A stretch of DNA of 38,548 nt from Nanohaloarchaea archaeon B1-Br10_U2g1 (GTDB lineage: Archaea > Nanohalarchaeota > Nanosalinia > Nanosalinales > Nanosalinaceae): NCBI GenBank assembly GCA_001563875.1, contig LKMN01000006.1, positions 1-38,548 of the forward strand, given 5' to 3'. The notes beneath the pieces were generated by a model, which was not told where the DNA came from, did no database searches, and worked only from the letters and a program-made list of their open reading frames with translations. Made by a program: the position numbers and the translations under genes. Positions 5,189-22,187 of this stretch are shown here, piece by piece. Within the stretch, counting starts at the first letter, position 1, and every line of letters starts with the position of its first letter.

Positions 5189-5470
5189 ATGGGCTGGACA
5201 GATGATCCATGGAAGTATCCTGCCTTCACAGTTGCAGGTATAGCAGCTTTCGTTACAGCAGATATTACTGGTCCAATTATATCAACCAATGTAGGACTTG
5301 AAGACTGGATTGGAGAGTATATAGCTGCAGGTTTGGCAGGAATCCTTTTCGGCTTCGTGATTGATGACATGGTCCCGGCATACATAGCACAGAAGAAAGG
5401 AGGCTCCTCCGACTTTGGAGGAGGCGGAGATGACTTTGGAGGAGGCGGAGATGAGTTCGACTTCGAGTAG
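5189..5470 (+). CDS. Small two-TM membrane protein with Gly/Asp/Phe-rich tail
   Basis: 93-aa ORF, two hydrophobic segments, C-terminus GGSSDFGGGGDDFGGGGDEFDFE. Confidence 0.8.
   Translation: MGWTDDPWKYPAFTVAGIAAFVTADITGPIISTNVGLEDWIGEYIAAGLAGILFGFVIDDMVPAYIAQKKGGSSDFGGGGDDFGGGGDEFDFE
5411..5452 (+). repeat. Perfect 21-bp tandem repeat x2 (GACTTTGGAGGAGGCGGAGAT)
   Basis: Read directly at 5411-5431 and 5432-5452; encodes DFGGGGD twice. Confidence 0.95.
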
Positions 5471-5900
5471 GATAGCTCTACTAATGATTTTTACTCTGTT
5501 AGTATCTGGATTAGCGGTCTCCCATAACCATCATACTAGCTCTGTATATGATCAAACAAGTTTCGAACTACCTCAGTACGATACACATGAGGAGGTTCTT
5601 ATAGAGTTTGTTGCTCCTTTTTTGTTTGTATCTATCCTTCTTACTCTGTCTTACGGCAAAGTTCTGCATGCTATCTTTAAAGATAAAGATGAAACTCCTT
5701 ACGCCAGTCCTTACTGGGTTGAAGAGGAGGAAAAGCCGAATGTTAAACGTTATGCTGTTCTACTAGGCTTTTTGACCACGGCGGTAATAGTTCCTACGGA
5801 GTTCTGGGGATGGATTCAGCTAGCTATAAGTTCCATAGGGGTAATAGTTACGGCAGCCTTTGCGCTATTAGTGGTCTACATTATATATTTGATGAGGTAG
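5451..5900 (+). CDS. Membrane protein with signal peptide and about 3 TM segments (member of local paralogous family)
   Basis: ATG 5451 behind GGAGG, signal-like RIALLMIFTLLVSGLAVS, then FVAPFLFVSILL...GKVLH and KRYAVLL hairpin. Confidence 0.8.
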   Translation: MSSTSSRIALLMIFTLLVSGLAVSHNHHTSSVYDQTSFELPQYDTHEEVLIEFVAPFLFVSILLTLSYGKVLHAIFKDKDETPYASPYWVEEEEKPNVKRYAVLLGFLTTAVIVPTEFWGWIQLAISSIGVIVTAAFALLVVYIIYLMR

Positions 5901-5913
5901 CTGTGATAAATTC

Positions 5914-5920
5914 TTATAAA
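5914..5920 (+). promoter_or_regulatory. TATA box of probable leaderless transcript for 5944..7689
   Basis: TTATAAA about 24 nt before ATG 5944, no SD. Confidence 0.5.
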
Positions 5921-5943
5921 ATAAAAAGCATTAATACTGTCCT

Positions 5944-7689
5944 ATGGAATCCGAACTAAGACGTAAGTTTATCTTTTTGAGTTTAACAGTTATTTTCGTA
6001 TCCGGTTTCGTGGCAGCACAGACTCCGGGAGGAGGTGTAGGAGGAGCACCGAGCGTAACAGGTTTCTTAGATGATATAGCTATGGGTGTCAACGATGCCA
6101 TAAGCTGGGATACAGGCAACACCTGGGAAGCAATGCTGTTAAACGTTATATTGCCGGCATTAGGTATTTATGCTGCAGCAAGGTTTGTTATAGGTAAAGG
6201 ATTCCACTATGCTGAAGCAAACTTCCAAGAAAGAACAAGTCTAGGATCAAGCGAACTTGGAGATACTGCCGAATGGTCTGCAAGAATACTTTCTGCCATA
6301 ACAGCTATCTGGGCGGTAGTTGCCTGGGGAGCTTTCATTGCAGTATACTGGTACATAGCGGGACTGCTGTTCCTAATCTTTCTGTTGTGGATACTGATAA
6401 CCGGAGGAATAGGTGTTATGTCTCCGTTCCCCGAACTATCTCTGGGGATTGGACGTTCCGGAGGAAGTAACGGAGACAATATGGCTCCGGAAGTCGAGAA
6501 AGAAATCAGAGAGATAGCGGATGAAAATCAAAGACTCAGAGACGAACTTAACCAAGTTAGAGAGCAGGAAAAAACCGATGAAGAACGTATAAACAGCGGA
6601 GATGAAGGACCGGAAGAAGCCGAGTCTCATATACGTACAGAGCTAAAAGAACTCTCACAGATAGAAAAACAGATATCAGAAGTTGAGAAAGAAGTAGAGA
6701 CTATTGAGGCGCAGATAAAAAGCCAAGAACAAGAGACGGAGCAAGAAGAACAGCACGAGCAACAGCTTCTACAAAAACTCGAAGCTCAACAAAAGAAGTT
6801 CAAAGAGACACTCCAACAGATAGAAGCTTATGAAGAGAAGACTATTGAAAACCAGAACGGCATAGACCAAATGCTGAACAGTTTGAAGCAGTCCAATCAA
6901 GTCAACAAAGACGCTATCCAAGAAGATTTAGCTTACAATCTTGACAATCTGGTCCAGATTGACAATATGCTTGAAAGCTTGAGTGAAATGGAGCAACAAG
7001 AATTTCAAGAGCTGAAAACGGCTTTAGAAGAGGAAAAAGAGGTTCTGTCTAATTTAGAGGCTCAAAAACAGGAAATTTTGGCTTTAGAAGACCAAGTCAA
7101 ACAGTTATTTAAGGAGATAGATATTTTGGAAAGCTGTTTCGAGGCAGAAGAAGATATAATAAGCCAGGCTGAAAGGCTTGCTCAGCAAGTGAAGGACAGA
7201 GAAGACTACCAGAAACTAGAGGAAGATGAGAAGATAATAGAAGACTTAGAGAGCAAATTCAACAGTATTTTAAATGAAGAAAACAAGATTAGAGAAAGAA
7301 TAGAAGAGCTTAAGGAGATAGAGGAGTACGAGAGAAATCAACATCAGCAGATAATTAATGAGCTTCAAGAGCTGGAAAAAAGCTTCGAAAAAACCCGTCA
7401 AATGCTTATCCAAATTGACGAGCTTATTACAGAGTTCCAAGAGGAAGTAAACAGAGAGATTAATGGAGCTAACTTCGAAACTCAGGCAGAATCTGTTTAC
7501 CACAACAAAGCTAACCGGAGAGGCGAGAACGATTTCCAGTTGATACAGCAAAAATTCCAAGACTCTGTAATGCTTTCCAACCAAATAAAGGCGGAGTTGG
7601 AGGGTGATGGAGGACAGGGAATGATTTCTCTAATACAAGATATGGAGACGTATCTTGGTAATTATCTTAAGGAGATAGGATCAAAATAG
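5944..7689 (+). CDS. Membrane-anchored long coiled-coil protein (signal peptide + about 3 TM + about 390-aa Q/E-rich coiled coil)
   Basis: 581-aa ORF, RRKFIFLSLTVIFVSGFVAA-Q signal, VILPALGIY...GKGFH TM, heptad-rich C-terminal two thirds. Confidence 0.9.
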   Translation: MESELRRKFIFLSLTVIFVSGFVAAQTPGGGVGGAPSVTGFLDDIAMGVNDAISWDTGNTWEAMLLNVILPALGIYAAARFVIGKGFHYAEANFQERTSLGSSELGDTAEWSARILSAITAIWAVVAWGAFIAVYWYIAGLLFLIFLLWILITGGIGVMSPFPELSLGIGRSGGSNGDNMAPEVEKEIREIADENQRLRDELNQVREQEKTDEERINSGDEGPEEAESHIRTELKELSQIEKQISEVEKEVETIEAQIKSQEQETEQEEQHEQQLLQKLEAQQKKFKETLQQIEAYEEKTIENQNGIDQMLNSLKQSNQVNKDAIQEDLAYNLDNLVQIDNMLESLSEMEQQEFQELKTALEEEKEVLSNLEAQKQEILALEDQVKQLFKEIDILESCFEAEEDIISQAERLAQQVKDREDYQKLEEDEKIIEDLESKFNSILNEENKIRERIEELKEIEEYERNQHQQIINELQELEKSFEKTRQMLIQIDELITEFQEEVNREINGANFETQAESVYHNKANRRGENDFQLIQQKFQDSVMLSNQIKAELEGDGGQGMISLIQDMETYLGNYLKEIGSK

Positions 7690-7702
7690 AAAAGGAGAAG
7701 AA

Positions 7703-8176
7703 TTAACTAAGGAAGCTTCTTACTTGTCCCCATACTGAGTCGGATCTGCTGAAAGTCTCTTCTAAGGAAGAGGATGTTTTACTGTTCAAAGATGCTCTCC
7801 TTGATTCTGCTGTTCCTTTTGGTGTGTTATCGTCGATTATATCGATGCCAAGTTTTTTGGCTGTTTCTTTGACTCCTCCTATCTTGTAGCCGTTACATTT
7901 GACTGCGGTGGTTGCTCTGGAGGCTGCATCATAGGCTTCAGACACGGTCTCTTCGTAGATGCTTGGTTCTTCTGAAGTTTCTATCTTGTCTACTCCCAGT
8001 CTTTCTGTCACTTCGTCTAGAGTTGTTTCATAGGACTTTCTGTCGGTAACTGCGGTGCCTGTTTCATCGTATACTTCTGATGCGTCGAAGTCCTCTACGG
8101 TTTCGTACTCTCTTTGAGCTTCGGGTTTTATGGTTCCGGCGTCTTCTCTTCCAGCGTGGTTGTATTCGATTATCAT
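7703..8176 (-). CDS. Hypothetical protein
   Basis: 157-aa acidic ORF filling the gap, TTTATAAA box at about 8205-8212. Confidence 0.75.
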   Translation of the reverse strand: MIIEYNHAGREDAGTIKPEAQREYETVEDFDASEVYDETGTAVTDRKSYETTLDEVTERLGVDKIETSEEPSIYEETVSEAYDAASRATTAVKCNGYKIGGVKETAKKLGIDIIDDNTPKGTAESRRASLNSKTSSSLEETFSRSDSVWGQVRSFLS

Positions 8177-8327
8177 TGTTATGTGTAAGTAGTAACACTC
8201 TATATTTATAAATCTTACCTGTGTCTCTGGCTTGAAACAACCGAAAATATACCTTCTACGCAGTTATAACTCCCAATTATTTAAACCAAAAACATGTTAT
8301 TAGGTAGTATAGAGGTATGCCAAAAAG

Positions 8328-8465
8328 ATGATTGAAAGCTTAATCCAAGCTATTATAGACAATCCTGACGTTGCAGGTCTAGCACTGTTAATAGGTTTCT
8401 TTGCAGGTTCTATGTACCAAAAACGTAAGATGAGAAAAAGAGGAATGGGAGGAATGGGCTTCTGA
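8328..8465 (+). CDS. 45-aa single-TM microprotein with basic, Gly/Met-rich tail
   Basis: Not in the ORF track. MIESLIQAIIDNPDVAGLALLIGFFAGSMYQKRKMRKRGMGGMGF; GAGGT upstream; stop abuts the SD of the next gene. Confidence 0.75.
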   Translation: MIESLIQAIIDNPDVAGLALLIGFFAGSMYQKRKMRKRGMGGMGF

Positions 8466-8477
8466 AGGTGTTAAAAA

Positions 8478-8729
8478 ATGAAGAGAGCTAAATTCCACGA
8501 ATACTTATACGAAGTTGAAAACTGGGTCGACGAGTTCGCGATAGCCTTTCTATCGTTCGGAGCTATAGCGGTCATAATCAACGCTATATTCTTTGCTCCA
8601 GGAGATGTCAACTTCCTATCGCTAGGAGAGCTAATCTATCCTTGGATCGTAATGCTTGCATTAATGATTATAGGAAGAGAGCTGTGGCTCCTCAACAGGA
8701 ACTTGAGGGCTTACGCAGAAGGTGAGTAA
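8478..8729 (+). CDS. Small two-TM membrane protein
   Basis: 83-aa ORF, AAGGTG SD, two hydrophobic helices. Confidence 0.8.
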   Translation: MKRAKFHEYLYEVENWVDEFAIAFLSFGAIAVIINAIFFAPGDVNFLSLGELIYPWIVMLALMIIGRELWLLNRNLRAYAEGE

Positions 8730-8734
8730 GTAAA

Positions 8735-9343
8735 GTGGAAGCCTCAGGGTTCAACCAACTGCTACAGAACATGGCGCAGCAGGACTTCTTCACAGGGATT
8801 TTCCCTTTCCTACTATCCTATATAATATTCTTTTTAGCACTACAGAAGACACCTATATTTAGTGAACAGGAGAACAAGAGATACTCTGCTCTAGTAGCGG
8901 TTATATTCGCGTTCTTTGTGTCATATGCTGTAGTAATGAACCCTGTATACCAAGAGTTCTTCCACAGCTACTTGTCTAGTATAGTAATAGGTATGGTAGG
9001 TCTACTAGGTTTCCTAGTGTTCCTAACGTTTATACCTGGCTTTGACCTAGATAACGCAGGAGCCCGAGGACTTGTAGCTCTAGTTGTATTAGGGAGCTTT
9101 GCAGCTTTCATATTTTCTGGAGGCATGTCTGCCTTCATCCCTGTAGATGTAGGTCTGCCAGGACTGGAATATGGACTGGCAGAGGTCCTAGATTATATAT
9201 TTGAGTCGGGACTGATCTATCTAATAATTATAGGAGCAGCTTTGGCCTGGGTAACCTCTGACGGAGGAGACGGAGACTGGGGAAAGAAAGCTAAGGATGC
9301 AGGAGGATACATGATAAGGCCTGTGGGTCACGGCGGTGGTTAA
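8735..9343 (+). CDS. Multi-pass (about 5 TM) membrane protein, paralogue of 9346..9858
   Basis: GTG start after GGTGA; IFPFLLSYIIFFLALQKTPIF...NKRYSALVAVIFAFFV. Confidence 0.85.
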   Translation: MEASGFNQLLQNMAQQDFFTGIFPFLLSYIIFFLALQKTPIFSEQENKRYSALVAVIFAFFVSYAVVMNPVYQEFFHSYLSSIVIGMVGLLGFLVFLTFIPGFDLDNAGARGLVALVVLGSFAAFIFSGGMSAFIPVDVGLPGLEYGLAEVLDYIFESGLIYLIIIGAALAWVTSDGGDGDWGKKAKDAGGYMIRPVGHGGG

Positions 9344-9345
9344 CA

Positions 9346-9858
9346 GTGTTTGAGAATATTGTATTATCTATGCAGGATATGAGTATTTTCCATCTATTCC
9401 TGCCTTGGTTACTTGTTCTAACGGTTACTTATGGAGTACTTCAGAAACAGGAAATATTTGAGGAAGAAGCTGTAACAGCTGCTACATCTCTATCTGTAGC
9501 ATTTCTATCGATAGGAGGCTTCTACTTCTTTGTTCCTCCAGAGATGTTCAGCCATTTCGCCGCAGTGATAGGATTCGCAATTTTCGGTTTCATAGGTCTA
9601 TTCTTACTGCTGGCAGTGGTTGGAGTAGATATAACAGAGTTTGAAGACGTTGAAAGAAGGTTTCCTGCGATAGCAGCAGCAAGTATAGCTGTTCTCGGAG
9701 CTTTAGGAGTTTTAACTTATCAGTATAATCTATTGGGTCTTCTACCGGAGTTAAGCGAGTTGACAACGTTATCGATAGACTTCGATCAACATGTAATGCC
9801 GATTTTAACTCTTCTGTTCCTACTAGCTATAGTAATATTTGTTGCTAGAGGAGAATAG
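9346..9858 (+). CDS. Multi-pass (about 5 TM) membrane protein, paralogue of 8735..9343
   Basis: GTG start after GGTGG; FLPWLLVLTVTYGVLQKQEIF, same helix layout as the upstream gene. Confidence 0.85.
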   Translation: MFENIVLSMQDMSIFHLFLPWLLVLTVTYGVLQKQEIFEEEAVTAATSLSVAFLSIGGFYFFVPPEMFSHFAAVIGFAIFGFIGLFLLLAVVGVDITEFEDVERRFPAIAAASIAVLGALGVLTYQYNLLGLLPELSELTTLSIDFDQHVMPILTLLFLLAIVIFVARGE

Positions 9859-9866: not shown

Positions 9867-10676
9867 TTACCACTCCTCTAGATCTACTTTATCTATATCT
9901 TCTTGGCTAACTTCGGAACTTGTCTCTATACCTCGTTCTTGTTTGATCTCCTGTACAAGGTCTGTTAGTTCTCTAACATTGTCGACAAGTGATGGAAGTA
10001 CTTGCTGGAAAGCCTTTTCAAGTCCTCCTATACGAGACTGGTAAGAGTCTATATTGTCTTCAATCTCGTCCATTTTCTGTATGAACTGTGTCTGATCTTC
10101 GTCATCTCTGACCTCGAGATCATGTACCCTCTGATCCAGCTCTTCAACCTTCTCTTTGACTTCATCTATCTCTCTGTAGACGTTTTCGAACTCGGCTTCT
10201 ACCATCTCAAAGTTCTCCGCTACAATAGTCTCTACAAGCTCTTCTACACCCGTATTTTGTACGTTTTGACCTTGGGGTGCGGCCTGTTGATCTCTCTGCA
10301 TATTCATCTGTGGTTCTTGAGATATATCTTGTCCTGGGTTCATTTCTTCTTGTTCTTGGTTGTTGAAGTCTTCATCCATAGGGCTTACTGCCTCTTCTCC
10401 GCCGCTGTATGGTTCCATAGGTTTAGGTCCTTCTTCGAAGCTATCTCCTGCTGCGGATGAGGTAACCGCTCTATTGATAGCTTGCTGTATCTCTGAACGG
10501 GAGTACTGTCCGTCAAGCTCGTCTTGTATCTCTCCTTCGGAGTAGCCCTGAGAAAACATTCGTTCCACAGTCCTTTCAAGTCCGCTACCCATAGATATAT
10601 CTGCTGTATTACTGTCTTGTGTAGGTTCTTTAGAGGAGTCCTCGTCTTTCAGTCTTCCGAACAGCTGAAATTTCAT
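9867..10676 (-). CDS. Cytoplasmic protein: small helical N-domain, Q-rich linker, C-terminal coiled coil
   Basis: 269-aa ORF with ATGA overlap to 10673..11140; VEELVETIVAENF...LEKAFQQVLPSLVDNVREL. Confidence 0.85.
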   Translation of the reverse strand: MKFQLFGRLKDEDSSKEPTQDSNTADISMGSGLERTVERMFSQGYSEGEIQDELDGQYSRSEIQQAINRAVTSSAAGDSFEEGPKPMEPYSGGEEAVSPMDEDFNNQEQEEMNPGQDISQEPQMNMQRDQQAAPQGQNVQNTGVEELVETIVAENFEMVEAEFENVYREIDEVKEKVEELDQRVHDLEVRDDEDQTQFIQKMDEIEDNIDSYQSRIGGLEKAFQQVLPSLVDNVRELTDLVQEIKQERGIETSSEVSQEDIDKVDLEEW

Positions 10677-11140
10677 AATTTGTTACCTTTCCGTTCTTTT
10701 TCCTTAGTACTGGCTTGGTTTTCCAGCCTTTTTATCTTTCTGTCTATAAGCCTTTTGACTTCACGTTTTGAGACCGTTTTTTCTTCTTCTACAATCTTTT
10801 TTACCTGTTTTTCGGTTACGAAAGAAGATTTTATAGGGTTCATAAGGTCTATGTAGTTCTCCATTTCGTCGAGCTCTTGATTGGTCACAAACTTCTTTTT
10901 CTCCCGGTTAAGCTCTTTTATATCGACCTCCATGTTCGCTATACGGTCTCTAAGCTCGGAAATCTCGTCTTCTAGGTCTTGTATACTTCTGTTAGTGTCT
11001 TTGTTCTTTTTGAGAACTGTATCGTCTAAAGTATTGACTCGGGCGTTGAGGTTACGTATATTCTCTTCAAGATCTCTGACTCTTCTGTTGAAATCGTTGA
11101 CCCTGTTCACAATCCGGTTCAAAAGGTCTTGTTGCGCCAC
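10673..11140 (-). CDS. Coiled-coil protein, loosely reminiscent of archaellum accessory ArlC/FlaC
   Basis: 155-aa heptad-rich ORF ending its coil in ENYIDLMNPI; divergent from the ATPase. ArlC resemblance is tentative. Confidence 0.8.
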   Translation of the reverse strand: MAQQDLLNRIVNRVNDFNRRVRDLEENIRNLNARVNTLDDTVLKKNKDTNRSIQDLEDEISELRDRIANMEVDIKELNREKKKFVTNQELDEMENYIDLMNPIKSSFVTEKQVKKIVEEEKTVSKREVKRLIDRKIKRLENQASTKEKERKGNKL

Positions 11141-11181: not shown

Positions 11182-13443
11182 ATGGCTGTAAGAGAAAAAG
11201 ACGTTTTCGAATACGAGTACGATGATGAGACAGGAACTATAGAGATCAATCTACTTGGATCTGTATACGGAGCATCTATAGAAGACTATCCTGAAGTGAT
11301 GTCTCGGGTAATAAACATTCTTCAGGAGGTGCCGGACGCATCGTCAGTAGTTCTGTCGGAATCCCGAGATTATGAATACAGTGATACTCAGGTAGAGATG
11401 CTTAAAGAGGTCGCAGAAGCCATAAGAGATATATCAAGTCAGGGATATATATCAAAAAACGTTAGAACTGATAAATGTGAGAGCCTTTACCAAGAAAAGC
11501 TTCCTGAGGTCCAAAGAATAGTTATAGACGACCTGAGAAAAGATCCGATAGGCGCATACGTACAGCTTAAACGTATGATACGCCATCTAAACCAGGAAAA
11601 AGAGGATTCATATCCTCAGAGAAAACGCTGTATAAAATACTTTATACAGGATGTTCTGAAACCGGTATCCGGACGTCTAGAGGAGACGCACTTAATACAG
11701 CAGTCTGTAGAGCTTGACTATATAACCGGCCACCATGTAGGAGACAGAGAGGTCTACAGAGAGTTCTTCCATCCTTTAGTAAGACCTAACTTCATGCTTA
11801 CAAAGTTCATGTCGTTGCCTCCTGAGAGAGGGGAGGAGGTTGACAGATACAGGGTTCAGGAAGATGTAGAGGTCTCGGTATACCGGGTCCCGGACCAGGT
11901 ACAGCCTATTTACCACGTGAATCCTCCAGAGTTCAATCTTCCTGAGGAAAAATATCGTTTGCTTGATGCGGCAAGAAGGTTTTTGGCCTCTCACAACCCG
12001 GAGTCAGGAGAGTTCGCTAGGCCCGAGAGAATGCGCCAAGTGTTCCAGAATATAGGAAGAGATATGGTCAGGGATATTTCCGACCAGATGGGTATACAGA
12101 TATCCGGAGAGGAGTTAGAACAGTTAACAGCAATACTTAACCGTTATACTTCAGGGCTCGGCGTGCTTGAACTACTTCTCTCTGATCCAAAGGTTCAGGA
12201 TGTTTATGTAAACTCTCCGATAGGTAATGCACCGATATATATCTCTCATCAGGACTACGAAGAATGTGAAACAAATCTAATCCCTACGAAAGAGGAGGCA
12301 GAGTCATGGGCCACAAGGTTCCGTATACAGTCAGGACGCCCGTTGGATGAAGCAAACCCTGTGCTGGATACGGATACAGAGGTTCCGGGAGGCCGTGCAC
12401 GTGTCGCAATAATACAGGAGAACCTTTCGCCTGAAGGGCTAGCGTTTGCGTTCAGAAGACACCGGTCCCGAGCCTGGACGCTACCATTGTTTGTTGACAG
12501 CGGAATGATTAACCCTCTAGGCGCAGGGCTTCTATCTTTCATTGTTGATGGAAACCGGTCGGTACTGTTTGCAGGTACTCGTGGCGCCGGTAAAACATCG
12601 CTCCTGTCAGCGTCGATGCTGGAGATACTGAAGAAACACAGAATTGTGACTGTTGAAGATACTTTAGAACTTCCTGTTAAACAGATGAAGGACTTAGGGT
12701 ATAACATAGAGAGTATGAAGTCTCGTTCTGTTATTACACAGGTTGAGAACGAGCTTGCTGCTGAAGAAGCAATTAGAACATCCTTGAGGCTTGGAGATTC
12801 TGCACTTGTTATTGGAGAGGTTCGTTCTGATGAGGCAAAAACTCTTTATGAGGCTATGCGTGTCGGAGCGGTCGCAAACTTTGTCGGAGGAACAATACAC
12901 GGTGAAGACGCTTATTCAGTATTCGACAGAGTCGTTAACGACCTAAATGTTCCAAAAACTTCTTTCAAGGCAACAGATATCATTGTAAGCGTAAACAAGA
13001 TCAAGAGTCCTGACGGCCTATCGACCTTTAGAAGGGTCACGGGAATAACAGAGGTTAGAAAAGAGTGGACTGATGACCCGCAGGAAGAAGGAGCGTTTGT
13101 AGATCTCATGCGGTACGACAGTAACGAAGACAAACTTGTGCCTACAGATACGCTGCTGAACGGCGAATCACTAGTTTTGAACAGGATAGCTAGTAATATC
13201 AGAGAATGGAAAAACAACTGGGAGGCAGTATGGGACAATATACAGCTCCGTAAGCAGATAAAACAAGACATTGTCCAAAAAGCAGAGGAAACAGATAATA
13301 AAGAACTTTTAGAGGCAGAATTCACTGTCAAATCAAATCAGAGATTCCATATACTTTCAGAGAGAGTTAGGGAGGAGTACGGCGAACAAAACACCGAAAG
13401 AGTTCTAGTAAGATGGAGAGAATGGCTAGAACAACAATTATAG
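11182..13443 (+). CDS. Type II/IV secretion system (VirB11/PilB/ArlI family) assembly ATPase with long N-terminal extension
   Basis: Walker A GTRGAGKT, Asp box TVEDTLEL, LRLG, Walker B LVIGEVR, His box TIHG, RRVTGITEV. Confidence 0.95.
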   Translation: MAVREKDVFEYEYDDETGTIEINLLGSVYGASIEDYPEVMSRVINILQEVPDASSVVLSESRDYEYSDTQVEMLKEVAEAIRDISSQGYISKNVRTDKCESLYQEKLPEVQRIVIDDLRKDPIGAYVQLKRMIRHLNQEKEDSYPQRKRCIKYFIQDVLKPVSGRLEETHLIQQSVELDYITGHHVGDREVYREFFHPLVRPNFMLTKFMSLPPERGEEVDRYRVQEDVEVSVYRVPDQVQPIYHVNPPEFNLPEEKYRLLDAARRFLASHNPESGEFARPERMRQVFQNIGRDMVRDISDQMGIQISGEELEQLTAILNRYTSGLGVLELLLSDPKVQDVYVNSPIGNAPIYISHQDYEECETNLIPTKEEAESWATRFRIQSGRPLDEANPVLDTDTEVPGGRARVAIIQENLSPEGLAFAFRRHRSRAWTLPLFVDSGMINPLGAGLLSFIVDGNRSVLFAGTRGAGKTSLLSASMLEILKKHRIVTVEDTLELPVKQMKDLGYNIESMKSRSVITQVENELAAEEAIRTSLRLGDSALVIGEVRSDEAKTLYEAMRVGAVANFVGGTIHGEDAYSVFDRVVNDLNVPKTSFKATDIIVSVNKIKSPDGLSTFRRVTGITEVRKEWTDDPQEEGAFVDLMRYDSNEDKLVPTDTLLNGESLVLNRIASNIREWKNNWEAVWDNIQLRKQIKQDIVQKAEETDNKELLEAEFTVKSNQRFHILSERVREEYGEQNTERVLVRWREWLEQQL

Positions 13444-13452: not shown

Positions 13453-15606
13453 ATGGATGAAGATAGAGAGGACAAGATCAAAGACATAGTAGATAAGCTT
13501 GACAGAGATCTTGAGATGCCTCCCTACAATACGTCCTCGAAAGAGGGTTACTCTCGAGAATACCAGAAGTACAGGAAAGAGGAGAGAGAAGAGGTTGAAA
13601 CCTCAAGCTTTGAGGAGCTATGTCTGACTTCGGGAGACCTCCTAAACCTCAAAGCAGGTAAGAAGACCAGAGAACGTCTAGGACCTCCTCTAAGACTGCT
13701 GGGGTGGGATATAACACCTGGCATGGTTCTGTCTGCAGCCGTCATGGTGGGTTTCGTGTCATTCTTTGGATGGTTCTTGCTCTTCGCTTTAAATGCGTTT
13801 TTAGGTTTCTTTATTCCGATCTCTATAATCCTTATTTCAGTATTTATTCCGATAGGAGCCGGTGTTTATACCTATTTCAAGCCAATCTACCAGGCCGAGA
13901 ACAAGGTTATAAGGAGCAGCGGGGAGATGATCCTCACAATACTCTACATGGTCATCTACATGCGTAGCTCTCCAAACCTAGAAGGAGCTATCAGGTTTGC
14001 GGCATTAAATCTTGAAGGTCCTGTTTCAAAAGATCTTAGAGGCGTATTATGGGATTTAGAGGTTGGGAAGTACAATAAAATAGAAGAAGCGTTAGAGAAT
14101 TATACTGTTAGGTGGAAGGGTTACAACGACGACTTTCTTGAATCTTTACAGCTTCTTAAGGCTTCAGTAAACGAGCCAAGTCCTCAAAGAAGAGAAGATC
14201 TTCTACAGGACTCAATAGATCGTATACTTGAGGGCACACAGGAAAATATGAAGCACTATGCGCAGGGTCTCAAGACACCGGTAATGATACTTAACGCTGT
14301 TGGAGCTATGCTTCCGGTCCTAGGTATGATAATGTTGCCTCTTGTTTCTGTATTCCTCGGAGACTCTATCTCAGAGATGCATCTCATACTTCTCTTCAAT
14401 ATAATGCTTCCTGCATTCCTTTACTGGTTTATGCAGCGAATACTTTCTTCTAGACCACCTACAGTATCCTCAGAACCTACGAGTAATGGAAATCTGCCTC
14501 GTCTAGGTTATTATAACCTGGATTTATTTGGAAGAAGTTTTTCCGCACCTGTATGGCCCTTAGGAGTGCTTATATTTTCTATTGTTGGTCTTTATGGGGT
14601 TTTGGGATACGCAATTTTTCCTGAGGTCTATCCGGTCTCTGACGGAGCTGAATCCGCGCCCGCAATGTTTACGGATGGAGACTCTTACAGTCCATTAGCT
14701 ATGCTGATAAGAAGTCTAAGTATCACCGCAGGACTAGGATTAGCCATAGGTGTGGTTCTTTACATTGGAGGATTAGAGAGAAAGAAAGCTGAAGAAGAGA
14801 TAAGGAATATTGAGAAACAGTTCCCCACAGCGTTGTTCCAGTTAGGAAACAAGATTTCGGGCGGAACACCTATAGAATTAGCTCTGAAGCAGGCAAGAGA
14901 GTCGACAGAGGAGATGGAGATCTCAGGCTTATTCAGCTATACTCTCAGAAACATTACGGAGATGGGTATGACCTTTGATGAAGCGGTCTTTGATGAAGAC
15001 TACGGCGCTCTAAGGCACTATCCTAGTCAGATGATCCATACTGTTATGAAGGCGATTATGGAGTCCTCAGAGAAAGGTACTAAGATGGCTTCAATGGCGA
15101 TGATGACTATCTCAAGATACTTAGAGAACATACACCGTACACAAGAGAAACTGAATGATCTGATGGAAGAGACAACGACCACAATACTGATGCTTGGCTA
15201 TCTTTTAGCGCCTATTGTGTCTGGAGTAGCTGTAGGTATGAGCCAGACCATAATCACGGCTATGTTTGAGCTCTCTGAATCTTTCGATGACTCTATAGCA
15301 GGTACTCCTGAGGGCGACGTGGGAGATGCTGATACTGCGGCCGCAGGTGCAGACTTTTCGGGTATACTAGGTGACTTAGACGCTGCCATACCTCCTGAGG
15401 TGCTTCAGTTCGTTGTAGGTATATACTTGATACAGCTTTTATGGATACTAGGAACATTCTATACAAAGATTAGTGTTGGAGAAAACAAGACTGAGCGAAA
15501 TATCTTTGTAGGAAAAATACTTATTTCGGGAGTGTTCTTCTACAGTATAACGCTACTAATAGTAAGCTTGCTGTTTGGAGGCATAGTAACAAGCATAGAA
15601 CCATGA
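13453..15606 (+). CDS. Type IV pilus membrane platform protein (two fused T2SSF/TadB-TadC-like domains)
   Basis: 717 aa, two cytoplasmic domains (SSPNLEGAI; FPTALFQLGNKISGGTPIELAL) each followed by TM bundles, directly after the ATPase. Confidence 0.9.
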   Translation: MDEDREDKIKDIVDKLDRDLEMPPYNTSSKEGYSREYQKYRKEEREEVETSSFEELCLTSGDLLNLKAGKKTRERLGPPLRLLGWDITPGMVLSAAVMVGFVSFFGWFLLFALNAFLGFFIPISIILISVFIPIGAGVYTYFKPIYQAENKVIRSSGEMILTILYMVIYMRSSPNLEGAIRFAALNLEGPVSKDLRGVLWDLEVGKYNKIEEALENYTVRWKGYNDDFLESLQLLKASVNEPSPQRREDLLQDSIDRILEGTQENMKHYAQGLKTPVMILNAVGAMLPVLGMIMLPLVSVFLGDSISEMHLILLFNIMLPAFLYWFMQRILSSRPPTVSSEPTSNGNLPRLGYYNLDLFGRSFSAPVWPLGVLIFSIVGLYGVLGYAIFPEVYPVSDGAESAPAMFTDGDSYSPLAMLIRSLSITAGLGLAIGVVLYIGGLERKKAEEEIRNIEKQFPTALFQLGNKISGGTPIELALKQARESTEEMEISGLFSYTLRNITEMGMTFDEAVFDEDYGALRHYPSQMIHTVMKAIMESSEKGTKMASMAMMTISRYLENIHRTQEKLNDLMEETTTTILMLGYLLAPIVSGVAVGMSQTIITAMFELSESFDDSIAGTPEGDVGDADTAAAGADFSGILGDLDAAIPPEVLQFVVGIYLIQLLWILGTFYTKISVGENKTERNIFVGKILISGVFFYSITLLIVSLLFGGIVTSIEP

Positions 15607-15740: not shown

Positions 15741-15935
15741 ATGAAACGTAGAGGAGAAATGGGGATGCCGGTAAGAATTGTGGTGATGTTGGTGGCAGCT
15801 CTAGCAGTAGTTCTCATATTTTTAGCAGTGTTCATACCTGCAGTAGGTGGAGCAGAGGAGGCAACAGGCTGTGATGGAGCTCTAAGAGCGATATCGTCAG
15901 CAATAAGTAGTGCAATGGGAGAGCAGATATGCTAG
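15741..15935 (+). CDS. Small pilin-like protein
   Basis: MKRRG/EMGMPVRIVVMLVAALAVVLIFL, two Cys in the short C-domain. Confidence 0.85.
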   Translation: MKRRGEMGMPVRIVVMLVAALAVVLIFLAVFIPAVGGAEEATGCDGALRAISSAISSAMGEQIC

Positions 15936-17965
15936 GAGGAACAAATTCTCGGAAAGGTTTGGCACAAACGGCGGTAGTAAAAATAGTGGGAATACTCCTA
16001 ATAGGTGCTATCGTGATCAGCGTAATAGGGTCTATAGGATCTGCTATAGCTGATACAGGCGATGCATTGATGGATTTCACAGGAACAAATGAGCATGTGG
16101 ATGTGGAGGAGAAGCACACGTTCATCTCAGCATCCAGATATGTCTATGATAGAGCGTGGGACTGTGAAGAGGTAGAACAGAACATATATCCTGGCTTGGA
16201 AGATACAGACTTTGGTGAAGAGCCTCGTTGTGCAGGTGTTTCAGGTACTGCGGCCGCATACTTTAGAAACATGGTTCCTGGGGAAGACACAGGAGGAGAT
16301 ATGGAGGGAAGAAACTCCCGTATAACCTTCGAGATATCAGAGGATGTCGAGGACAACATCACGATTAGTTCGGATCAGATATACGGTGACGAAGATAGTT
16401 TGCAGAAAGATGAAAGCTCTTCCACAACACTAGATGACTCTGAAGTCGCCTTCCGCGGTGTTTCAGACGACCGAAGTTTCTACCAAAGGACCGATCCTGA
16501 AAGAGATTGTGGAGGCACCGGCTATGGTAACTGGCACGATCCAGGAAATCCTAGATACTTTGTTGCCTTCGATATAATCGGTGAAACAAACAGGGTTAAC
16601 GAAATTGGAGAAGCAGAAAACCTTGACTCCGATATGCCTGTCTACTGTGAAGAAGCATTTGTAGGCGTTTCCGACTACATATATCGTTCCAGCATACAAT
16701 CTAAGTTGGATGGTGAGGACGGAAGTTTTGAATTAGTTCTATGTCCGGGAGATGAAGGATATATACAGGCCAATAAAGACAGTCCTTGGAATGAGGAAGA
16801 AGCTGCAGAAGACCACAGTATCTTCCCATTCATAGAAATCACCACCTTAGGGGAAGACTGTGTTGGACACGGTTTTGGTGACGTCGATGTTCCTGACAAG
16901 CTTCCTGACGATTTAAAGACTTCAGGAAGACTGCTCCATGTAACAGGAGACTCTTCAGAAGATCATCCTTACGTTAGAGGACCTGGTTTAAGTGGAGGAG
17001 CTACGGATTATGCTTTCGACCTGTTCGAACTCAGTGAGGAAAATACAGAGGTTAGTAGTACCATAAGCTCCAAATCTCGTAACATAGATTTTGGACATAA
17101 TCCTCAGAGAGCGGAGGAATGTGTTCTAGGCTTATGGAACCACCATGGAGTAAACCCTGCGCCAGGCTGGGTTAGTTACGAGCAAGGAACAGCTGTGGAG
17201 AGAGACGGAACTTTCCCGGATCTGGAAAGTGAGGACGTGAAAGGCCAGTCTCTTGAAGACAGAAACTATGGTCCTGATGCAGAAGATCTATATAACCTGT
17301 ATGCTCAAGAGGGATTCGTCGGAGGTAGCTGGGGTAGCGATATCTCAGATAAGATCCTGAATGATTTCACTGGAGAACAGAGATTTGAGACATACGGAGA
17401 CCTTCTATGCGCGCCTGACAAGAGAGATGAGGCTCAGGATTTTGAGAACGACCATGCAACATGGTATATGTGTGGAGGAGATCATGGAGTAAACGAGATT
17501 GAAATTAATGAGAAAAAATGGGTCTGTGATGAGGATTCGGGGGCTTGGCTGGAAGAGAGACCTGAAGATTTTGTAGAAATTAACGTTGTTGAGACCGAGC
17601 CGGAAGAGATAGATGAACTGAACATTGGTGACGAGGCAGTCTTTGAGTTGGAGATCTCTGGTAGCGGTTTTGATATGTCGGACGTAGGATTAAACTACAT
17701 TAGACTTGATGATGAGGGTGATGAGGTAAGAGGCGGTTCTGCGGATGATGCTAACTTTGAGACGTCTTCAGATTCAGGAGTAGACTATGAAGCAACGGTT
17801 GCTGAGACCTTAGAAGGCGATAAAGAAGAAGGAGTTCTTGAATGGCCTACATATAATGTTGACGAGGTGGAGGCTGAAGACTTCGTAGGATTTTATCTGA
17901 ACGTTCAAGAGGAAGAAATGGGCAGAGTTGGTGAAAAAAAGGTTGAGATAGACCTGACAGAGTGA
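15929..17965 (+). CDS. Large pilin-like adhesin candidate (678 aa, acidic, Cys-rich)
   Basis: SRKG/LAQTAVVKIVGILLIGAIVISVIG class III-type N-terminus, large extracellular beta-rich body. Confidence 0.85.
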   Translation: MLGGTNSRKGLAQTAVVKIVGILLIGAIVISVIGSIGSAIADTGDALMDFTGTNEHVDVEEKHTFISASRYVYDRAWDCEEVEQNIYPGLEDTDFGEEPRCAGVSGTAAAYFRNMVPGEDTGGDMEGRNSRITFEISEDVEDNITISSDQIYGDEDSLQKDESSSTTLDDSEVAFRGVSDDRSFYQRTDPERDCGGTGYGNWHDPGNPRYFVAFDIIGETNRVNEIGEAENLDSDMPVYCEEAFVGVSDYIYRSSIQSKLDGEDGSFELVLCPGDEGYIQANKDSPWNEEEAAEDHSIFPFIEITTLGEDCVGHGFGDVDVPDKLPDDLKTSGRLLHVTGDSSEDHPYVRGPGLSGGATDYAFDLFELSEENTEVSSTISSKSRNIDFGHNPQRAEECVLGLWNHHGVNPAPGWVSYEQGTAVERDGTFPDLESEDVKGQSLEDRNYGPDAEDLYNLYAQEGFVGGSWGSDISDKILNDFTGEQRFETYGDLLCAPDKRDEAQDFENDHATWYMCGGDHGVNEIEINEKKWVCDEDSGAWLEERPEDFVEINVVETEPEEIDELNIGDEAVFELEISGSGFDMSDVGLNYIRLDDEGDEVRGGSADDANFETSSDSGVDYEATVAETLEGDKEEGVLEWPTYNVDEVEAEDFVGFYLNVQEEEMGRVGEKKVEIDLTE

Positions 17966-18020
17966 TCTGTGAAACTTAAGGAAAAGAAGTTATAAGAGAA
18001 AAAATACAGTAAGTTCTTGT

Positions 18021-18179
18021 ATGTTAGAAAGGAAGGGCCAGACTATTTCGATAAGTACACTAGCCAAGCTTGTTCTGGCTTTAGTTGTCCTGGCCGTAGT
18101 TGTCTTTATCGCTCAAAGCCAGATTGGGCCTATGGTTGATGATGCTGTATCTTCTATTCTGGCACACCAACCGCAGTAG
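18021..18179 (+). CDS. 52-aa pilin-like protein
   Basis: Not in the ORF track. MLERKG/QTISISTLAKLVLALVVLAVVVFIAQSQIGPMVDDAVSSILAHQPQ; TTATAA at about 17990-17995. Confidence 0.85.
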   Translation: MLERKGQTISISTLAKLVLALVVLAVVVFIAQSQIGPMVDDAVSSILAHQPQ

Positions 18180-18212
18180 GTTATTTCAATCAGATAGAGA
18201 CAATGTTTATCT

Positions 18213-18365
18213 ATGAATCTGTCTATAAACACGCTCATAGTGATACTTCTAGGAGTGATAGTGATCTCTGTGGTAGGATTTTTAGTTACAGACCAAGTAA
18301 TAGATTTCCGTTACTTTGCGTTAGACGAGATAGATGCAGTTAACCTAGTGCCTGGAGGTAGTTAG
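18213..18365 (+). CDS. 50-aa pilin-like protein lacking a basic leader
   Basis: Not in the ORF track. MNLSINTLIVILLGVIVISVVGFLVTDQVIDFRYFALDEIDAVNLVPGGS; in-frame stop at 18195 prevents extension. Confidence 0.75.
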   Translation: MNLSINTLIVILLGVIVISVVGFLVTDQVIDFRYFALDEIDAVNLVPGGS

Positions 18366-18368
18366 CAT

Positions 18369-18572
18369 ATGAAGCCTATTCATGTAGTGGTCATGATTGT
18401 TCTGGCTTTAATTGTAGTATCTGCTTTATCCGCAGTTATGATAGGTGTTGAGTCTCCTCTTACATCAATTTTATCTAACTCTTCTGAGACCCAGACAGGT
18501 GTATCTCAGTGTCTAGACCAAAATCCTGACTACTCGTACCAAGACTGTCTCAGAGAGGTTGAAAACTCATGA
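18369..18572 (+). CDS. Small pilin-like protein lacking K/R-G leader
   Basis: GGAGGT SD, N-terminal hydrophobic helix, Cys pair near the C-terminus. Confidence 0.8.
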   Translation: MKPIHVVVMIVLALIVVSALSAVMIGVESPLTSILSNSSETQTGVSQCLDQNPDYSYQDCLREVENS

Positions 18573-19021
18573 AAAAAGGTATAGCCGTCACTTCCAGCGT
18601 ATTCATACTTGTTACAGGAATAACCGCTATATTCGGGTTTGGGTTCGCCGTAGGTGTTATAGATAACTTTCTAGGTATGGAGTCTGATCTCCAGCAAAGC
18701 GAACAGCTTCATAACCTTCATGATAGTTTAGAAAATGCCTGCAGTAACGCTGAGGAGTTCGGAACCTTTTCAGATACTACTGAGGAGTACGAGTTTCCAT
18801 ATCTTGTCTCTCTAGGCGAAGAGAGCAATAGGTTTAGAGCGGAATTTGAAGAAGATGGTGAAACAGAGATTTGGGGCCCTGAACCGGTTGAAGGAGAGCT
18901 TGTGGAGTGCGACCTAGATATACAAGAGTTAACTGAAGAAGGAGCCTACAGATTTGAAATAGAGTCAAGTAACGGTGAAAATCCTACAGTTCAGGTTGAG
19001 CCGGTTGATGGAGATGCGTAA
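18569..19021 (+). CDS. Minor pilin-like protein
   Basis: MKKG/IAVTSSVFILVTGITAIFGFGF, ATGA overlap, two Cys. Confidence 0.85.
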   Translation: MKKGIAVTSSVFILVTGITAIFGFGFAVGVIDNFLGMESDLQQSEQLHNLHDSLENACSNAEEFGTFSDTTEEYEFPYLVSLGEESNRFRAEFEEDGETEIWGPEPVEGELVECDLDIQELTEEGAYRFEIESSNGENPTVQVEPVDGDA

Positions 19022-19400
19022 GGGAGTAGTAGACGCAGGCGTAATAATACTGGTAGGCTTCGTTATATCGGCTATACTTCTTGCTGTACCCAACCAGTTG
19101 ATAACCTCTTCAGGAGAGTTCATAACTGAAGACGTGGCCGAACACCATCTAGAGCAGATAGGAAACAGCGTAATGGTTGTAGAGGATGAGGAAGAACAGT
19201 ATATTGAGGTCGATCTACCAGAATATGAAATAATTGTTGTGGAGAATAGTGTGGGGTTGAGGAGAGGACAGATAGAGGTTTCAAAAGAAATAGATTACAA
19301 TATACAGGGCCCTGATAGTTATGAGAGAATAGACGACGTTCTATGCGTTAAGCATAAGGGAAGTTACACGGATATAAAGGTTGAGAGGTGTTCAGACTGA
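19014..19400 (+). CDS. Minor pilin-like protein
   Basis: ATG 19014 gives MRKG/VVDAGVIILVGFVISAILL (preferred over the track start 18975); C-terminal Cys pair. Confidence 0.85.
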   Translation: MRKGVVDAGVIILVGFVISAILLAVPNQLITSSGEFITEDVAEHHLEQIGNSVMVVEDEEEQYIEVDLPEYEIIVVENSVGLRRGQIEVSKEIDYNIQGPDSYERIDDVLCVKHKGSYTDIKVERCSD

Positions 19401-19876
19401 CAGAGTTTTATGAGAAGATCGAGTACATAGTTGTAGCATTTACTTTAGCGATCGCACTTTATCTGATTATAGCAGGATCTGTCACAGTTTTTCTAGAGTC
19501 TAGCGAGACCGCGACAGAAACCATTTCGGAGAGGTCGCACAACCATCTAGTTCTTGAAGATCTTCTCAATGCTGAGAAAGATACTCCAAGAGCGGTGTTT
19601 ACATCTGATTTTATACTTGATGAGGATAATATTGACTTTAGAGAGGTCAACGGAGAAGAGCACTGTTATATCGAACAAGTATCCGGTCTTGATGGAGAAC
19701 GGTCTGGCTTCGGCTTTATTGAGCAGGGAGTACCTTCTGGAGAGATATCCGGATCCGAAATCTTCGATAGATGTGCTCGTACTGAGCTTTCAGGTACTGA
19801 TCCTTCATCAAGAGTTCTTCTAAAAGATGGTGAAACAAGTTATCTTCCGGGGGTGGTAGTATATGAGATATCGTAA
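19388..19876 (+). CDS. Single-TM pilin-like/accessory protein lacking K/R-G leader
   Basis: 162 aa, N-terminal hydrophobic helix, overlaps both neighbours, two Cys. Confidence 0.75.
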   Translation: MFRLTEFYEKIEYIVVAFTLAIALYLIIAGSVTVFLESSETATETISERSHNHLVLEDLLNAEKDTPRAVFTSDFILDEDNIDFREVNGEEHCYIEQVSGLDGERSGFGFIEQGVPSGEISGSEIFDRCARTELSGTDPSSRVLLKDGETSYLPGVVVYEIS

Positions 19877-20387
19877 AGGTAAAACTGATATAATAGGATA
19901 CCTGTTCCTTTGGGGTATCACAATTACGTTTACAGTGGTGATAACGCTTTCTCTGCTAGCTGCTGACGGTATTGGCATGGCCGATCTGGGTGCTGAAGTC
20001 GAGTTAGAGTCTGAAAGCCAGAACCACCACTCTATGATGGGCACTTTAATCTACGGCGAACTAGCCCGTACGGAAGGTTTAGAGGATTACGGCGATAAGA
20101 CGTTCGAAGAAGTATTATCTCTGTATCTGTCTTCTGATGAAGACCTTTCAGTGAACGGTCAGAGAATCGATAAGGGAGAGGTCAGAGAAGATCTTGAAAC
20201 ATATTTTGACAACAGAAGAAGCTCCACATTCGCATCTCAGGTCATGGGCTACCGCCTCGATATTCTAGCTGAGAACGATCCGGAGTCTTTCGGTGATGTA
20301 GATTCTGAAGAGACACAGATCGCCACTCATCAACTGAAACTTGAAAACGGTACAGCAACATTAATACTGGTGCAGGGTGGAAGATAA
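19863..20387 (+). CDS. Minor pilin-like protein
   Basis: MRYRKG/KTDIIGYLFLWGITITFTVVITLSLL. Confidence 0.8.
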   Translation: MRYRKGKTDIIGYLFLWGITITFTVVITLSLLAADGIGMADLGAEVELESESQNHHSMMGTLIYGELARTEGLEDYGDKTFEEVLSLYLSSDEDLSVNGQRIDKGEVREDLETYFDNRRSSTFASQVMGYRLDILAENDPESFGDVDSEETQIATHQLKLENGTATLILVQGGR

Positions 20388-21415: not shown

Positions 21416-21508
21416 TATCTACGCCTAACTTGGTTATAGAGCCTGAGAGCGTATCAAAGGTAATGTTAAAAGTCTTCAGTTCTTTTCTTAGAACAGGTGA
21501 ACAACACA

Positions 21509-21790
21509 GTGGCAGAACAAGAAGACGATAACACAGTATACGTAGGTTCAAAACCTGCAATGAGCTATGTATTAGCTGTAGTAACGCAGTTTAGTGAAGG
21601 ACAGGAGACAGTACACATTAAAGCTAGAGGAAAAGCAATTAGCCGTGCAGTTGACGTAGCTGAAATGGTTCAAAGAAAGTTTGTAGAAGATTCTGAAGTC
21701 GAAGATATAACGATCGACACGGACCAGATAGAGACTGATGAAGGAGAAGAGTTAGACGTCTCAAGCATCCAAATCGATATGGCTAAGTAG
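21509..21790 (+). CDS. albA: DNA/RNA-binding chromatin protein Alba
   Basis: VYVGSKPAMSYVLAV, IKARGKAISRAVDVAE, VSSIQI; GTG 21509 behind AGGTGA SD. Confidence 0.95.
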   Translation: MAEQEDDNTVYVGSKPAMSYVLAVVTQFSEGQETVHIKARGKAISRAVDVAEMVQRKFVEDSEVEDITIDTDQIETDEGEELDVSSIQIDMAK

Positions 21791-21800
21791 AACCTTAACG

Positions 21801-21820
21801 GTTCTTCTTCCACTATTTTT
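21801..21820 (+). terminator. Pyrimidine/T-tract terminator candidate after alba
   Basis: GTTCTTCTTCCACTATTTTT immediately downstream of the stop. Confidence 0.35.
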
Positions 21821-21860
21821 CTACACCATATTTTTATACAGAGGTAAACAAGAGAATCTT

Positions 21861-22169
21861 GTGAAAAGAAAAGGGGTATCACAAGTACTTTCATTGATAG
21901 TTGCTGCAGCAGTACTGATGATGGCTGCACTTACACTGATAATACTGGTAACCGGAGGCCTAGGAGACTTCGGAGCAGACCTATTTGGAGGAACATGCTC
22001 AGGAGCAATAGAGTCATCATGTCAGGCTCAAGGCGGAGGAACCGTTTCGATACCGTCCTCTTGTTTGACCGGAGGAGAACTAACAGAAGAGGCCAATCAG
22101 TTTGATATGACCAGCAATTACAATATAGATCTTGATGATGGAGAAGTAGCTTGCGCGCCACAAGAGTAA
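21861..22169 (+). CDS. Pilin (major-pilin candidate)
   Basis: MKRKG/VSQVLSLIVAAAVLMMAALTLII, four Cys, TTTATA at 21833-21838. Confidence 0.9.
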   Translation: MKRKGVSQVLSLIVAAAVLMMAALTLIILVTGGLGDFGADLFGGTCSGAIESSCQAQGGGTVSIPSSCLTGGELTEEANQFDMTSNYNIDLDDGEVACAPQE

Positions 22170-22187
22170 GGAGATCAGGTTTCAAAA

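Follow-up and report, generated by a model that had tools for sequence, protein, structure and literature searches.

Paired membrane proteins next to a type-IV-filament-like locus of a nanohaloarchaeon as candidate accessory subunits of a DPANN machine

The stretch of DNA analysed here, called the window throughout, comprises 38,548 nucleotides (contig LKMN01000006.1, assembly GCA_001563875.1) of the genome of Nanohaloarchaea archaeon B1-Br10_U2g1, which has a size of 0.71 Mb, is 96.8% complete and provided the 1927 open reading frames (ORFs) of at least 60 aa used in genome-wide scans. Four of its genes encode the membrane proteins A, B, C and D, which lie just upstream of a gene set for a type-IV-filament-like machine with two coiled-coil proteins (CCPs), a FlaI/CpaF-like ATPase, a TadC platform and pilin-like genes (Table 1). 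A first-pass annotation, made from the letters alone, had pointed to ORFs starting at 5451, 5944, 8735 and 9346, all of which exist as described, and had proposed that they are four copies of one membrane domain which build a hetero-oligomeric ring or pore. The analysis reported below leads to a different functional reading, namely that A to D are, with reasonable though not high likelihood, accessory membrane subunits of the DPANN machine encoded directly downstream.

Table 1. Coordinates and predicted properties of the features of the window that are discussed in the text
Feature	Position	Strand	Description
F	5189..5470	+	93-aa small membrane protein with Gly/Asp-rich tail, directly before and overlapping A
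A	5415..5900	+	TTG start; in-frame ATG at 5451 (MSSTSSRIALL...) is the likely start; signal-peptide-like N-terminus, extracellular amphipathic helix, first transmembrane helix (TM1) with invariant Pro, basic loop (KRY), TM2-TM3 hairpin
B	5944..7689	+	Signal peptide and A-like domain of three transmembrane helices (~residues 1-185, nt 5944-6498), followed by a Gly-rich linker and a ~400-aa coiled coil, predicted cytoplasmic
E	8478..8729	+	83-aa two-helix membrane protein; stop 5 nt before C
C	8735..9343	+	GTG start; 202-aa five-helix membrane protein, distal member of the tandem C/D pair
D	9346..9858	+	GTG start; five-helix paralog of C with 170 aa, invariably the copy adjoining the coiled-coil genes
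CCP 1	9867..10676	-	Coiled-coil protein with FlaC_arch-type segment; Pfam PF05377 28.9 bits, cut-off 27.8
CCP 2	10673..11140	-	Small coiled-coil protein; sub-threshold coiled-coil matches only
ATPase	11182..13443	+	Type II/IV secretion-family ATPase, FlaI/CpaF-like, with ~220-aa N-terminal extension; Pfam T2SSE 56.1-56.8 bits
Platform	13453..15606	+	TadC/FlaJ-type; Pfam T2SSF (PF00482) 28.7 bits, cut-off 25.2
Candidate pilins/adhesins	15929..22779	+	Run of ORFs with class-III-signal-like N-termini (by eye)
Alba gene	21497-21790		Among the class-III-like ORFs of 15929-22779

No Pfam or NCBIfam cut-off is reached by A, the B N-terminus, C, D, E or F. The features by which A to D had been grouped are nevertheless found in their translations: a hydrophobic-Pro-aromatic helix occurs in all four with a Lys exactly 14 residues past the Pro, and the segments KRYAVLL and KRYSALV are present in A and C, respectively. 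Likewise, the N-termini of A and B are basic, hydrophobic and AxA-like (..LAVS/H and ..VAA/Q, the slash marking the apparent cleavage site), and B is the one copy with a long coiled coil, as residues ~185-581 match only coiled-coil-type models (SMC and similar), all below threshold (matches at residues 183-538). The Pro of TM1 is invariant in 20 of 20 sequences each of the A and C families and is kept by 90% or more of the 20 sequences of the D family. A regular expression written post hoc from A to D, and hence indicative only, matches six of the 1927 ORFs, four of which are A to D; on both counts, the Pro-helix-Lys motif exceeds chance. The same pattern (VLPALLLYFLSSLAVEK) is seen in a 77-aa ORF elsewhere in the genome (C21:17053-17286), by chance or as a small relative.

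Orthologues of A to D were drawn from 40 related genomes. Among the 24 genomes of the family, C is found in 24 and A in 19, and the N-terminal 185 residues of B, used as a single query, recovered orthologues in five. The sole BLASTP match among the four proteins is that of C to D, which is marginal (E 0.007, 27% over 48 aa). Comparison of family alignments by hhalign joins C and D at 98.0% (E 1.9e-13, 113 columns) and A and the N-terminus of B at 95.3% (E 2.1e-8, 128 columns), while the hidden Markov models (HMMs) of C and D match each other at ~1e-10 and no other of the 1927 ORFs. Because of these hhalign scores and the mutual, exclusive C/D HMM matches genome-wide, the pairing of C with D and of A with B can be taken as firm on profile evidence.

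C and D belong, as paralogs that diverged long ago, to a very large five-helix family which has no name and is so far known mainly from DPANN archaea. Among 1.84 billion proteins, a combined C+D profile retrieves 1962 cluster representatives at E <=1e-3 and 451 at E <=1e-10; C and D themselves score 1.6e-54 and 2.7e-46 against this profile and 2.2e-48 and 5e-37 against an HMM of 143 sequences. Many of the relatives are lysine-rich proteins of non-halophiles, those with a name are hypothetical proteins of Aenigmarchaeota and Parvarchaeota, and a language-model look-up, which provides leads only, pointed to clusters from Nanobdellota, Woesearchaeota and Methanobacteriota. Among 120 C/D relatives of a precomputed list, five carry PF27133. 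Within the phylum of the window, the profile is matched in 60 of 70 genomes (27 of 28 of high quality), almost always as tandem arrays of two to five copies, and in a second DPANN phylum, to which a metagenome-assembled genome of Aenigmatarchaeota belongs, all 81 sampled genomes encode one to six copies.

Members of this type have ~150-210 aa, five helices in an N-out/C-in orientation, an amphipathic N-terminal helix and a Pro near the start of TM1, features that C and D share; five helices are likewise predicted for 53 of 59 non-halophile relatives. A and B possess only the first three of these helices, plus the signal peptide. Invariant Gly residues were identified in the family alignments at G92 and G102 of C and at G58 and G93 of D. 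Structure prediction yields only helices, at moderate confidence (C, predicted local distance difference test 72.6 and predicted template modelling score 0.50; A, 79.3 and 0.57). Foldseek against the PDB with C and VIA-align wide with C and A returned generic helical matches only, with no channel-like match and none to the CedA- or VirB6-like folds which, beside TadE-associated ones, the first-pass annotation had put forward for comparison. A complex prediction of C with D scored 0.00 with the partner fold uncertain, and is evidence neither way.

A tree of 44 array members requires six label changes to explain the position in the array, compared with a mean of 20.4 upon shuffling of labels (none of 200 shuffles as low), and the copy adjoining the coiled-coil genes, which comprises the D orthologues, forms one clade across the order (support 99/91). 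The persistence of position-fixed paralogs fits distinct subunits of one hetero-oligomeric assembly which are not interchangeable. To this extent the hetero-oligomer of the first-pass annotation is in agreement with the tree; a ring or pore is indicated by no result. A 692-aa frame just upstream of a C/D array in another genome (G013:C2:12978-13223) matches the C-terminal half of the C/D profile (97-171) with E 5.2e-6 and could represent a fusion or an extended form of a family member.

The gene order F-A-B..E-C-D is kept in all 15 loci of the family (the window and 14 others), in each of which a match to the F HMM lies just upstream of A and a match to the E HMM adjoins C; a B-type gene, judged from N-termini, follows A in all 15 inspected loci. 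B is split in two of these (L058, L060) into a membrane protein and a separate coiled-coil gene, and some relatives carry two to three B-type genes. The ATPase orthologue is 76-83% identical and located 1.5-2.5 kb beyond D in five of five complete relative genomes. Within the order, genes for a diphthine synthase-like protein, a DUF357 protein and Trm5 are syntenic as well; because such housekeeping genes are also kept, synteny within the phylum is weak when taken alone, and the evidence across phyla carries the argument.

In the sister families, five of seven fetched loci show a G gene, two to four C/D paralogs, two coiled-coil genes, the ATPase and the platform, with the remaining two ending at contig ends. 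The five Aenigmatarchaeota loci all show an H gene, three C/D paralogs, one or more coiled-coil genes, the ATPase, which is matched by the window ATPase at E 1e-239 to 1e-260, and the platform; the three array copies are the only C/D members in each of these genomes. Orthologues of CCP 1 adjoin the C/D arrays in L064-L068, L070 and L071-L075, and those of CCP 2 and of the platform are present in sister-family and Aenigmatarchaeota loci. The neighbourhood of membrane paralogs, coiled-coil genes, ATPase and platform is thus conserved across two phyla. In the second phylum, 80 of 81 genomes encode the ATPase, and at least 60 of these 80 have a C/D match within 10 kb of it, as counted by hand among the 150 of 280 C/D matches listed. 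Six further loci of this phylum include an H-type gene before the array in three and a signal-peptide-bearing A/B-like gene in one. In the genome of the window, five ATPases of the T2SSE family are encoded, of which only that at 11182-13443 has C/D-type neighbours.

The relation between the two pairs is less firm. Comparing A with C through their family alignments gave 65% (E 6e-5), which rose to 85% (E 6.4e-6, 81 columns, residues 62-161 of A on 18-100 of C) with the 143-sequence C/D profile; with the non-halophile C/D relatives, A scored 84% (E 7.3e-6) across TM1, the loop and TM2. Two further types of A-like protein, each encoded before C/D arrays, show the same behaviour. The A-like G proteins of the sister families (~290 aa) match A at 84% (E 7.7e-6) and the C/D profile at 77% (E 2.1e-5), and a search with the C/D profile returned one of them (E 2.4e-5 per genome). 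The transmembrane domain of the H proteins of Aenigmatarchaeota (~200 aa) matches C/D at 66% (E 5.8e-5, 71 columns), and an H-type HMM matches B at E 7.7e-6 among the 1927 ORFs. Every alignment between the pairs is in one register, Pro on Pro. None of the 25 controls exceeded 6.4% or gave an E better than 1.5e-3: 16 comparisons with reversed profiles gave a best E of 1.5e-3 (6.4%), and nine with the neighbouring membrane families E and F, which by profile are unrelated to A to D, gave a best E of 0.013. Counts of Lys and Arg place the N-terminal amphipathic helix outside and loop 1 and the C-terminus inside in all types alike. A link between A/B and C/D is thus probable, not proven, and a common origin of the TM1-TM3 core is likely from these profiles. 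The shared core would probably consist of an outside amphipathic helix, TM1 with its Pro, a basic cytoplasmic loop and the TM2-TM3 hairpin, placed in A and B behind a signal peptide that presumably exports the longer N-terminal stretch. Of the four copies initially proposed, two pairs are therefore firm by profile, while the helix-Pro TM1, basic loop and TM2-TM3 common to all four are only probable.

Several findings, presented in this and the following paragraph, weigh against a common core or against the assignment of A to D to the machine. BLASTP does not match A or B to C or D; in the scan of the 1927 ORFs, C is matched by the A HMM at no better than E 1.5, and A and B are left unmatched at E <=10 by the 143-sequence C/D HMM. 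By hhalign, A with D (0.8%) and B with D (0.3%) are at control level, as is B with C (14%, E 1.9e-3), although B rises to 29% with the 143-sequence C/D profile, and upon realignment, A matches the nanohaloarchaeal C+D alignment at 69.5% over only 23 columns, equivalent to TM1. By eye, the Pro of TM1 is seen in seven and absent in eight of the 15 B-type loci, and membrane profiles are prone to composition-driven matches. All this would be expected if A/B and C/D were two unrelated families which have converged on a Pro-containing first helix and a basic loop, and which may still serve the same machine. We consider such convergence to be on the unlikely side, as separately built A, G and H profiles each match C/D with one shared register (E 6e-6 to 6e-5), which no control approached; the deeper C/D profile raises rather than lowers the score of A, the match extends over TM1-TM3 with 71-81 columns, the inferred topology is identical in all types and an H-type HMM cross-matches a C/D paralog at E 3.8e-3 (L081).

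The 44-member tree does not show a C/D split that predates the two phyla. Among the matches listed for the second phylum, moreover, C/D lies on another contig than the ATPase in 17 of the 80 genomes and at more than 25 kb in three; these 20 are an upper bound for the genomes in which the two are apart, because only 150 of 280 matches were listed. The synteny of the diphthine synthase-like, DUF357 and Trm5 neighbours would be compatible with a general role of A to D in the envelope or membrane, as in S-layer anchoring, lipid handling or protein insertion, where the neighbourhood would merely reflect slow change of gene order in reduced genomes; near-universality in two phyla is also what a core function would display. 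This is very improbable given that between the phyla only the module of membrane paralogs, coiled-coil genes, ATPase and platform survives, the nanohaloarchaeal housekeeping neighbours being absent from all five Aenigmatarchaeota loci, and that a C/D copy accompanies the ATPase in most genomes of the second phylum as stated above. An own ring or pore of A to D, acting as a channel or conduit independently of a pilus-type motor, would be in line with ancient, position-fixed paralogs as distinct subunits of one assembly and with proteins that are almost wholly buried in the membrane and possess Gly-rich helices with invariant residues. It is nevertheless improbable, since the family is found only beside one ATPase/platform locus, once in the genome of the window and with three of three copies in the five aenigmatarchaeal genomes, and since no polar or charged residues are conserved inside the helices in the alignments of A, C and D; the neighbourhood speaks for subunits accessory to a type-IV-filament-like machine with coiled-coil proteins, ATPase and TadC rather than to the self-standing ring or pore of the first-pass annotation. 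C and D could, finally, be unconventional subunits of the filament or its base, pilin-like without a class III signal peptide (SPIII). A census mentions proteins that resemble pilins but lack the SPIII motif in some archaeal type IV filament (T4F) loci (PMC13705601), and two distant relatives weakly match Pfam models of VirB2 or pilins of type IV secretion systems below threshold (E 0.007 and 0.013). Five helices with very short loops and no globular or exposed domain, the absence by eye of a basic leader with Gly/Ala cleavage site in C and D, and the candidate canonical pilins downstream make this extremely improbable.

A number of identities were tested against the sequences and dropped. A catalytic role of C/D as peptidase or transporter was discarded because the helices lack invariant polar residues and no family matched, and a mobile or viral origin in view of chromosomal synteny that is kept phylum-wide and of even composition. 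As class III signal pilins or archaellins, A to D do not qualify by eye, A and B having Sec-type signal peptides and C and D being leaderless with five helices; no pilin Pfam model matches A to D. A prepilin peptidase is equally discounted for A to D by the lack of a match to PF01478 (Peptidase_A24) and of an invariant Asp in the helices of the A, C and D alignments; the only PF01478 match of the genome is located on another contig (C23:9827-10231). A to D have no PF00482 match that would identify them as a TadC/PilC/FlaJ platform, which is a separate gene (13453-15606). C and D do not match DUF2070 (PF09843) at E <=0.1, and this family is absent from the scan of the genome of the window. Some relatives do resemble the N-terminal helices of DUF2070 (positions ~26-185), with a best E of 9.1e-6 and 24.7 bits, below the 30-bit cut-off: six of 19 distant C/D relatives and three of 20 C-family members match at E <=0.05, and in a further set three of six within the limit of E <=0.1 (E 9.1e-6, 0.045, 0.073). 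DUF2070 proteins, predicted to be archaeal membrane proteins of unknown function, are about three times longer.

If A to D are accessory subunits of the filament-like machine, the small polytopic proteins would be packed in the membrane next to the TadC platform or around it. B, and in other phyla the shorter H-type protein, would project its coiled coil into the cytoplasm, where it could, together with the two soluble coiled-coil proteins, scaffold or position the hexameric ATPase in a manner comparable to ArlX or ArlCDE in archaella, while the amphipathic helices on the outside would be turned towards the S-layer or the base of the filament. Paralogy, topology signals and synteny across two phyla are what the sequences show; physical association of A to D with the machine, their stoichiometry and their role are what we infer here. 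A more far-reaching version, which has to be regarded as a long shot, assumes that one three-helix module underlies A, B, C and D and that the four form a hetero-oligomeric collar around TadC which turns the motor into a trans-envelope conduit for host-derived material, with the coiled coil of B and the two soluble coiled-coil proteins gating or positioning the ATPase.

Loci of this kind have been reported. In DPANN cluster 2 and Undinarchaeota, conserved loci encode CCPs, CpaF and TadC, with FlaF and PilA named as well, and several products of these loci were detected in the proteome of Ca. Nanohaloarchaeum antarcticus (Hamm et al., 10.1101/2023.02.24.529834), for which FlaI, FlaJ and an archaellin-like protein are also mentioned in the proteome of an earlier paper (PMC6642349). 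The window is alike in encoding two coiled-coil proteins by a CpaF/FlaI-like ATPase and TadC, an arrangement that extends from Nanohaloarchaeota to Aenigmatarchaeota, and its two coiled-coil genes are presumably the CCPs of Hamm et al., with which they were equated by description. Since its main text (10.1101/2023.02.24.529834) never uses the terms 'transmembrane', 'membrane protein' and 'hypothetical', the five-helix paralogs and the A/B-type proteins appear not to be discussed in it. The 2016 and 2026 T4F censuses (Makarova et al., PMC4858521; PMC13705601) and two DPANN protein-family surveys refer, in the sections at hand, to accessory membrane and coiled-coil proteins in general terms only. 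For the archaeal T4F subclade 4F, a coiled-coil accessory protein is noted and the ATPase 'is also found in nanoarchaea' (PMC4858521, PMC13705601); the available text on this subclade and on 'system 2'/clade 2 describes no tandem five-helix paralog family. A description of the family was not found in the literature searched, which does not prove that there is none. With the locus of coiled-coil proteins, ATPase and TadC already published, the membrane proteins A to D are best read as candidate parts of it that the literature searched does not describe.

A functional parallel is provided by the archaellum. FlaX is described as a ring scaffold around FlaI/FlaH (PMC5019145), and like ArlX (FlaX) of Crenarchaeota or ArlC/D/E (FlaC/D/E) of Euryarchaeota, B combines a membrane anchor with a long, predicted cytoplasmic coiled coil near a FlaI-like ATPase, while the neighbouring CCP 1 passes the Pfam cut-off for FlaC_arch. 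In contrast to ArlX, which has one helix, B has a signal peptide and three helices, and no sequence similarity of B to ArlX turned up, although no search was aimed at ArlX. The window ATPase scores 138 bits against the NCBIfam FlaI model with its cut-off of 550, and the ArlF, ArlG and ArlH families are not represented among the 31 window proteins scanned. As far as sequences can tell, the locus would encode a variation on a known pilus-type machine rather than a system of another kind.

DPANN archaea live as obligate symbionts whose means of attaching to their hosts and of drawing on them are still an open question, to which earlier work has offered a pilus-type locus with coiled-coil proteins as a partial answer (10.1101/2023.02.24.529834, PMC6642349). 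The most conserved ATPase/platform pair is almost always accompanied by two to six copies of an unnamed membrane family and, in many lineages, also by a membrane-anchored coiled-coil protein. This suggests a machine more elaborate than the picture of 'ATPase, platform, scattered pilins' in the 2026 census, in which DPANN T4F loci are considered scattered and ambiguous (PLoS Genet 2026, PMC13705601), and offers concrete candidate subunits of the host-contact apparatus that could be sought in cryo-tomograms, proteomes and pull-downs from the few systems in culture. Should a collar or conduit be true, an unnamed, near-universal family would be a defining structural invention of this apparatus, through which symbionts dependent on lipids and nucleotides would take material from the host.

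Several observations on neighbouring genes deserve mention. The ATPase is among the two least Pfam-like of the five T2SSE paralogs (weakest scores 31.1 bits), yet strongly conserved, and its ~220-aa N-terminal extension has no family match. Its orthologue occurs within frames of 1249-1783 aa in L072:13445-17641 and L073:7009-11283 and in G089, G096, G106, G108, G122, G135, G137 and G140; these match in two pieces (~1-482/537 and 477/535-738) with ~500-1000 extra residues in between, which look like an intein-type insertion. In the run of candidate pilins or adhesins, the class-III-like N-termini read ..RKG/L.., ..KKG/I.., ..RKG/V.., ..KRKG/V.. and ..TKG/M.., and basic residues, Gly and a hydrophobic helix mark the start of an acidic protein of 678 aa and of at least six small ORFs; the ORFs with such N-termini have no Pfam match.

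The F HMM has no match in the sister-family or Aenigmatarchaeota loci L064-L075, and E was not found in sister families or Aenigmatarchaeota; the Gly/Asp-rich tail of F resembles the tails of some C-family members. Translational coupling of the E-C-D reading frames is suggested, because the stop codons of E and C precede the starts of C and D by only 5 nt and 2 nt, respectively. The public gene call for C (P0016, 190 aa) begins 12 residues later than the frame used here, although the family alignment shows this stretch of 12 residues to be conserved. Between B and E, the window carries an acidic 157-aa ORF (7703-8176, minus strand), the place of which is taken in several relatives by an unrelated soluble acidic protein of ~350-400 aa (L054:2376-3569, L055:3033-4094, L056:5387-6478, L060:2173-3216, L062:2459-3556). 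Further upstream, a very acidic 467-aa protein without family match (1717-3120) precedes the Trm5-like (3147-4178) and diphthine-synthase-like (4128-4928) genes, which by longest-ORF reading overlap tail to head on opposite strands.

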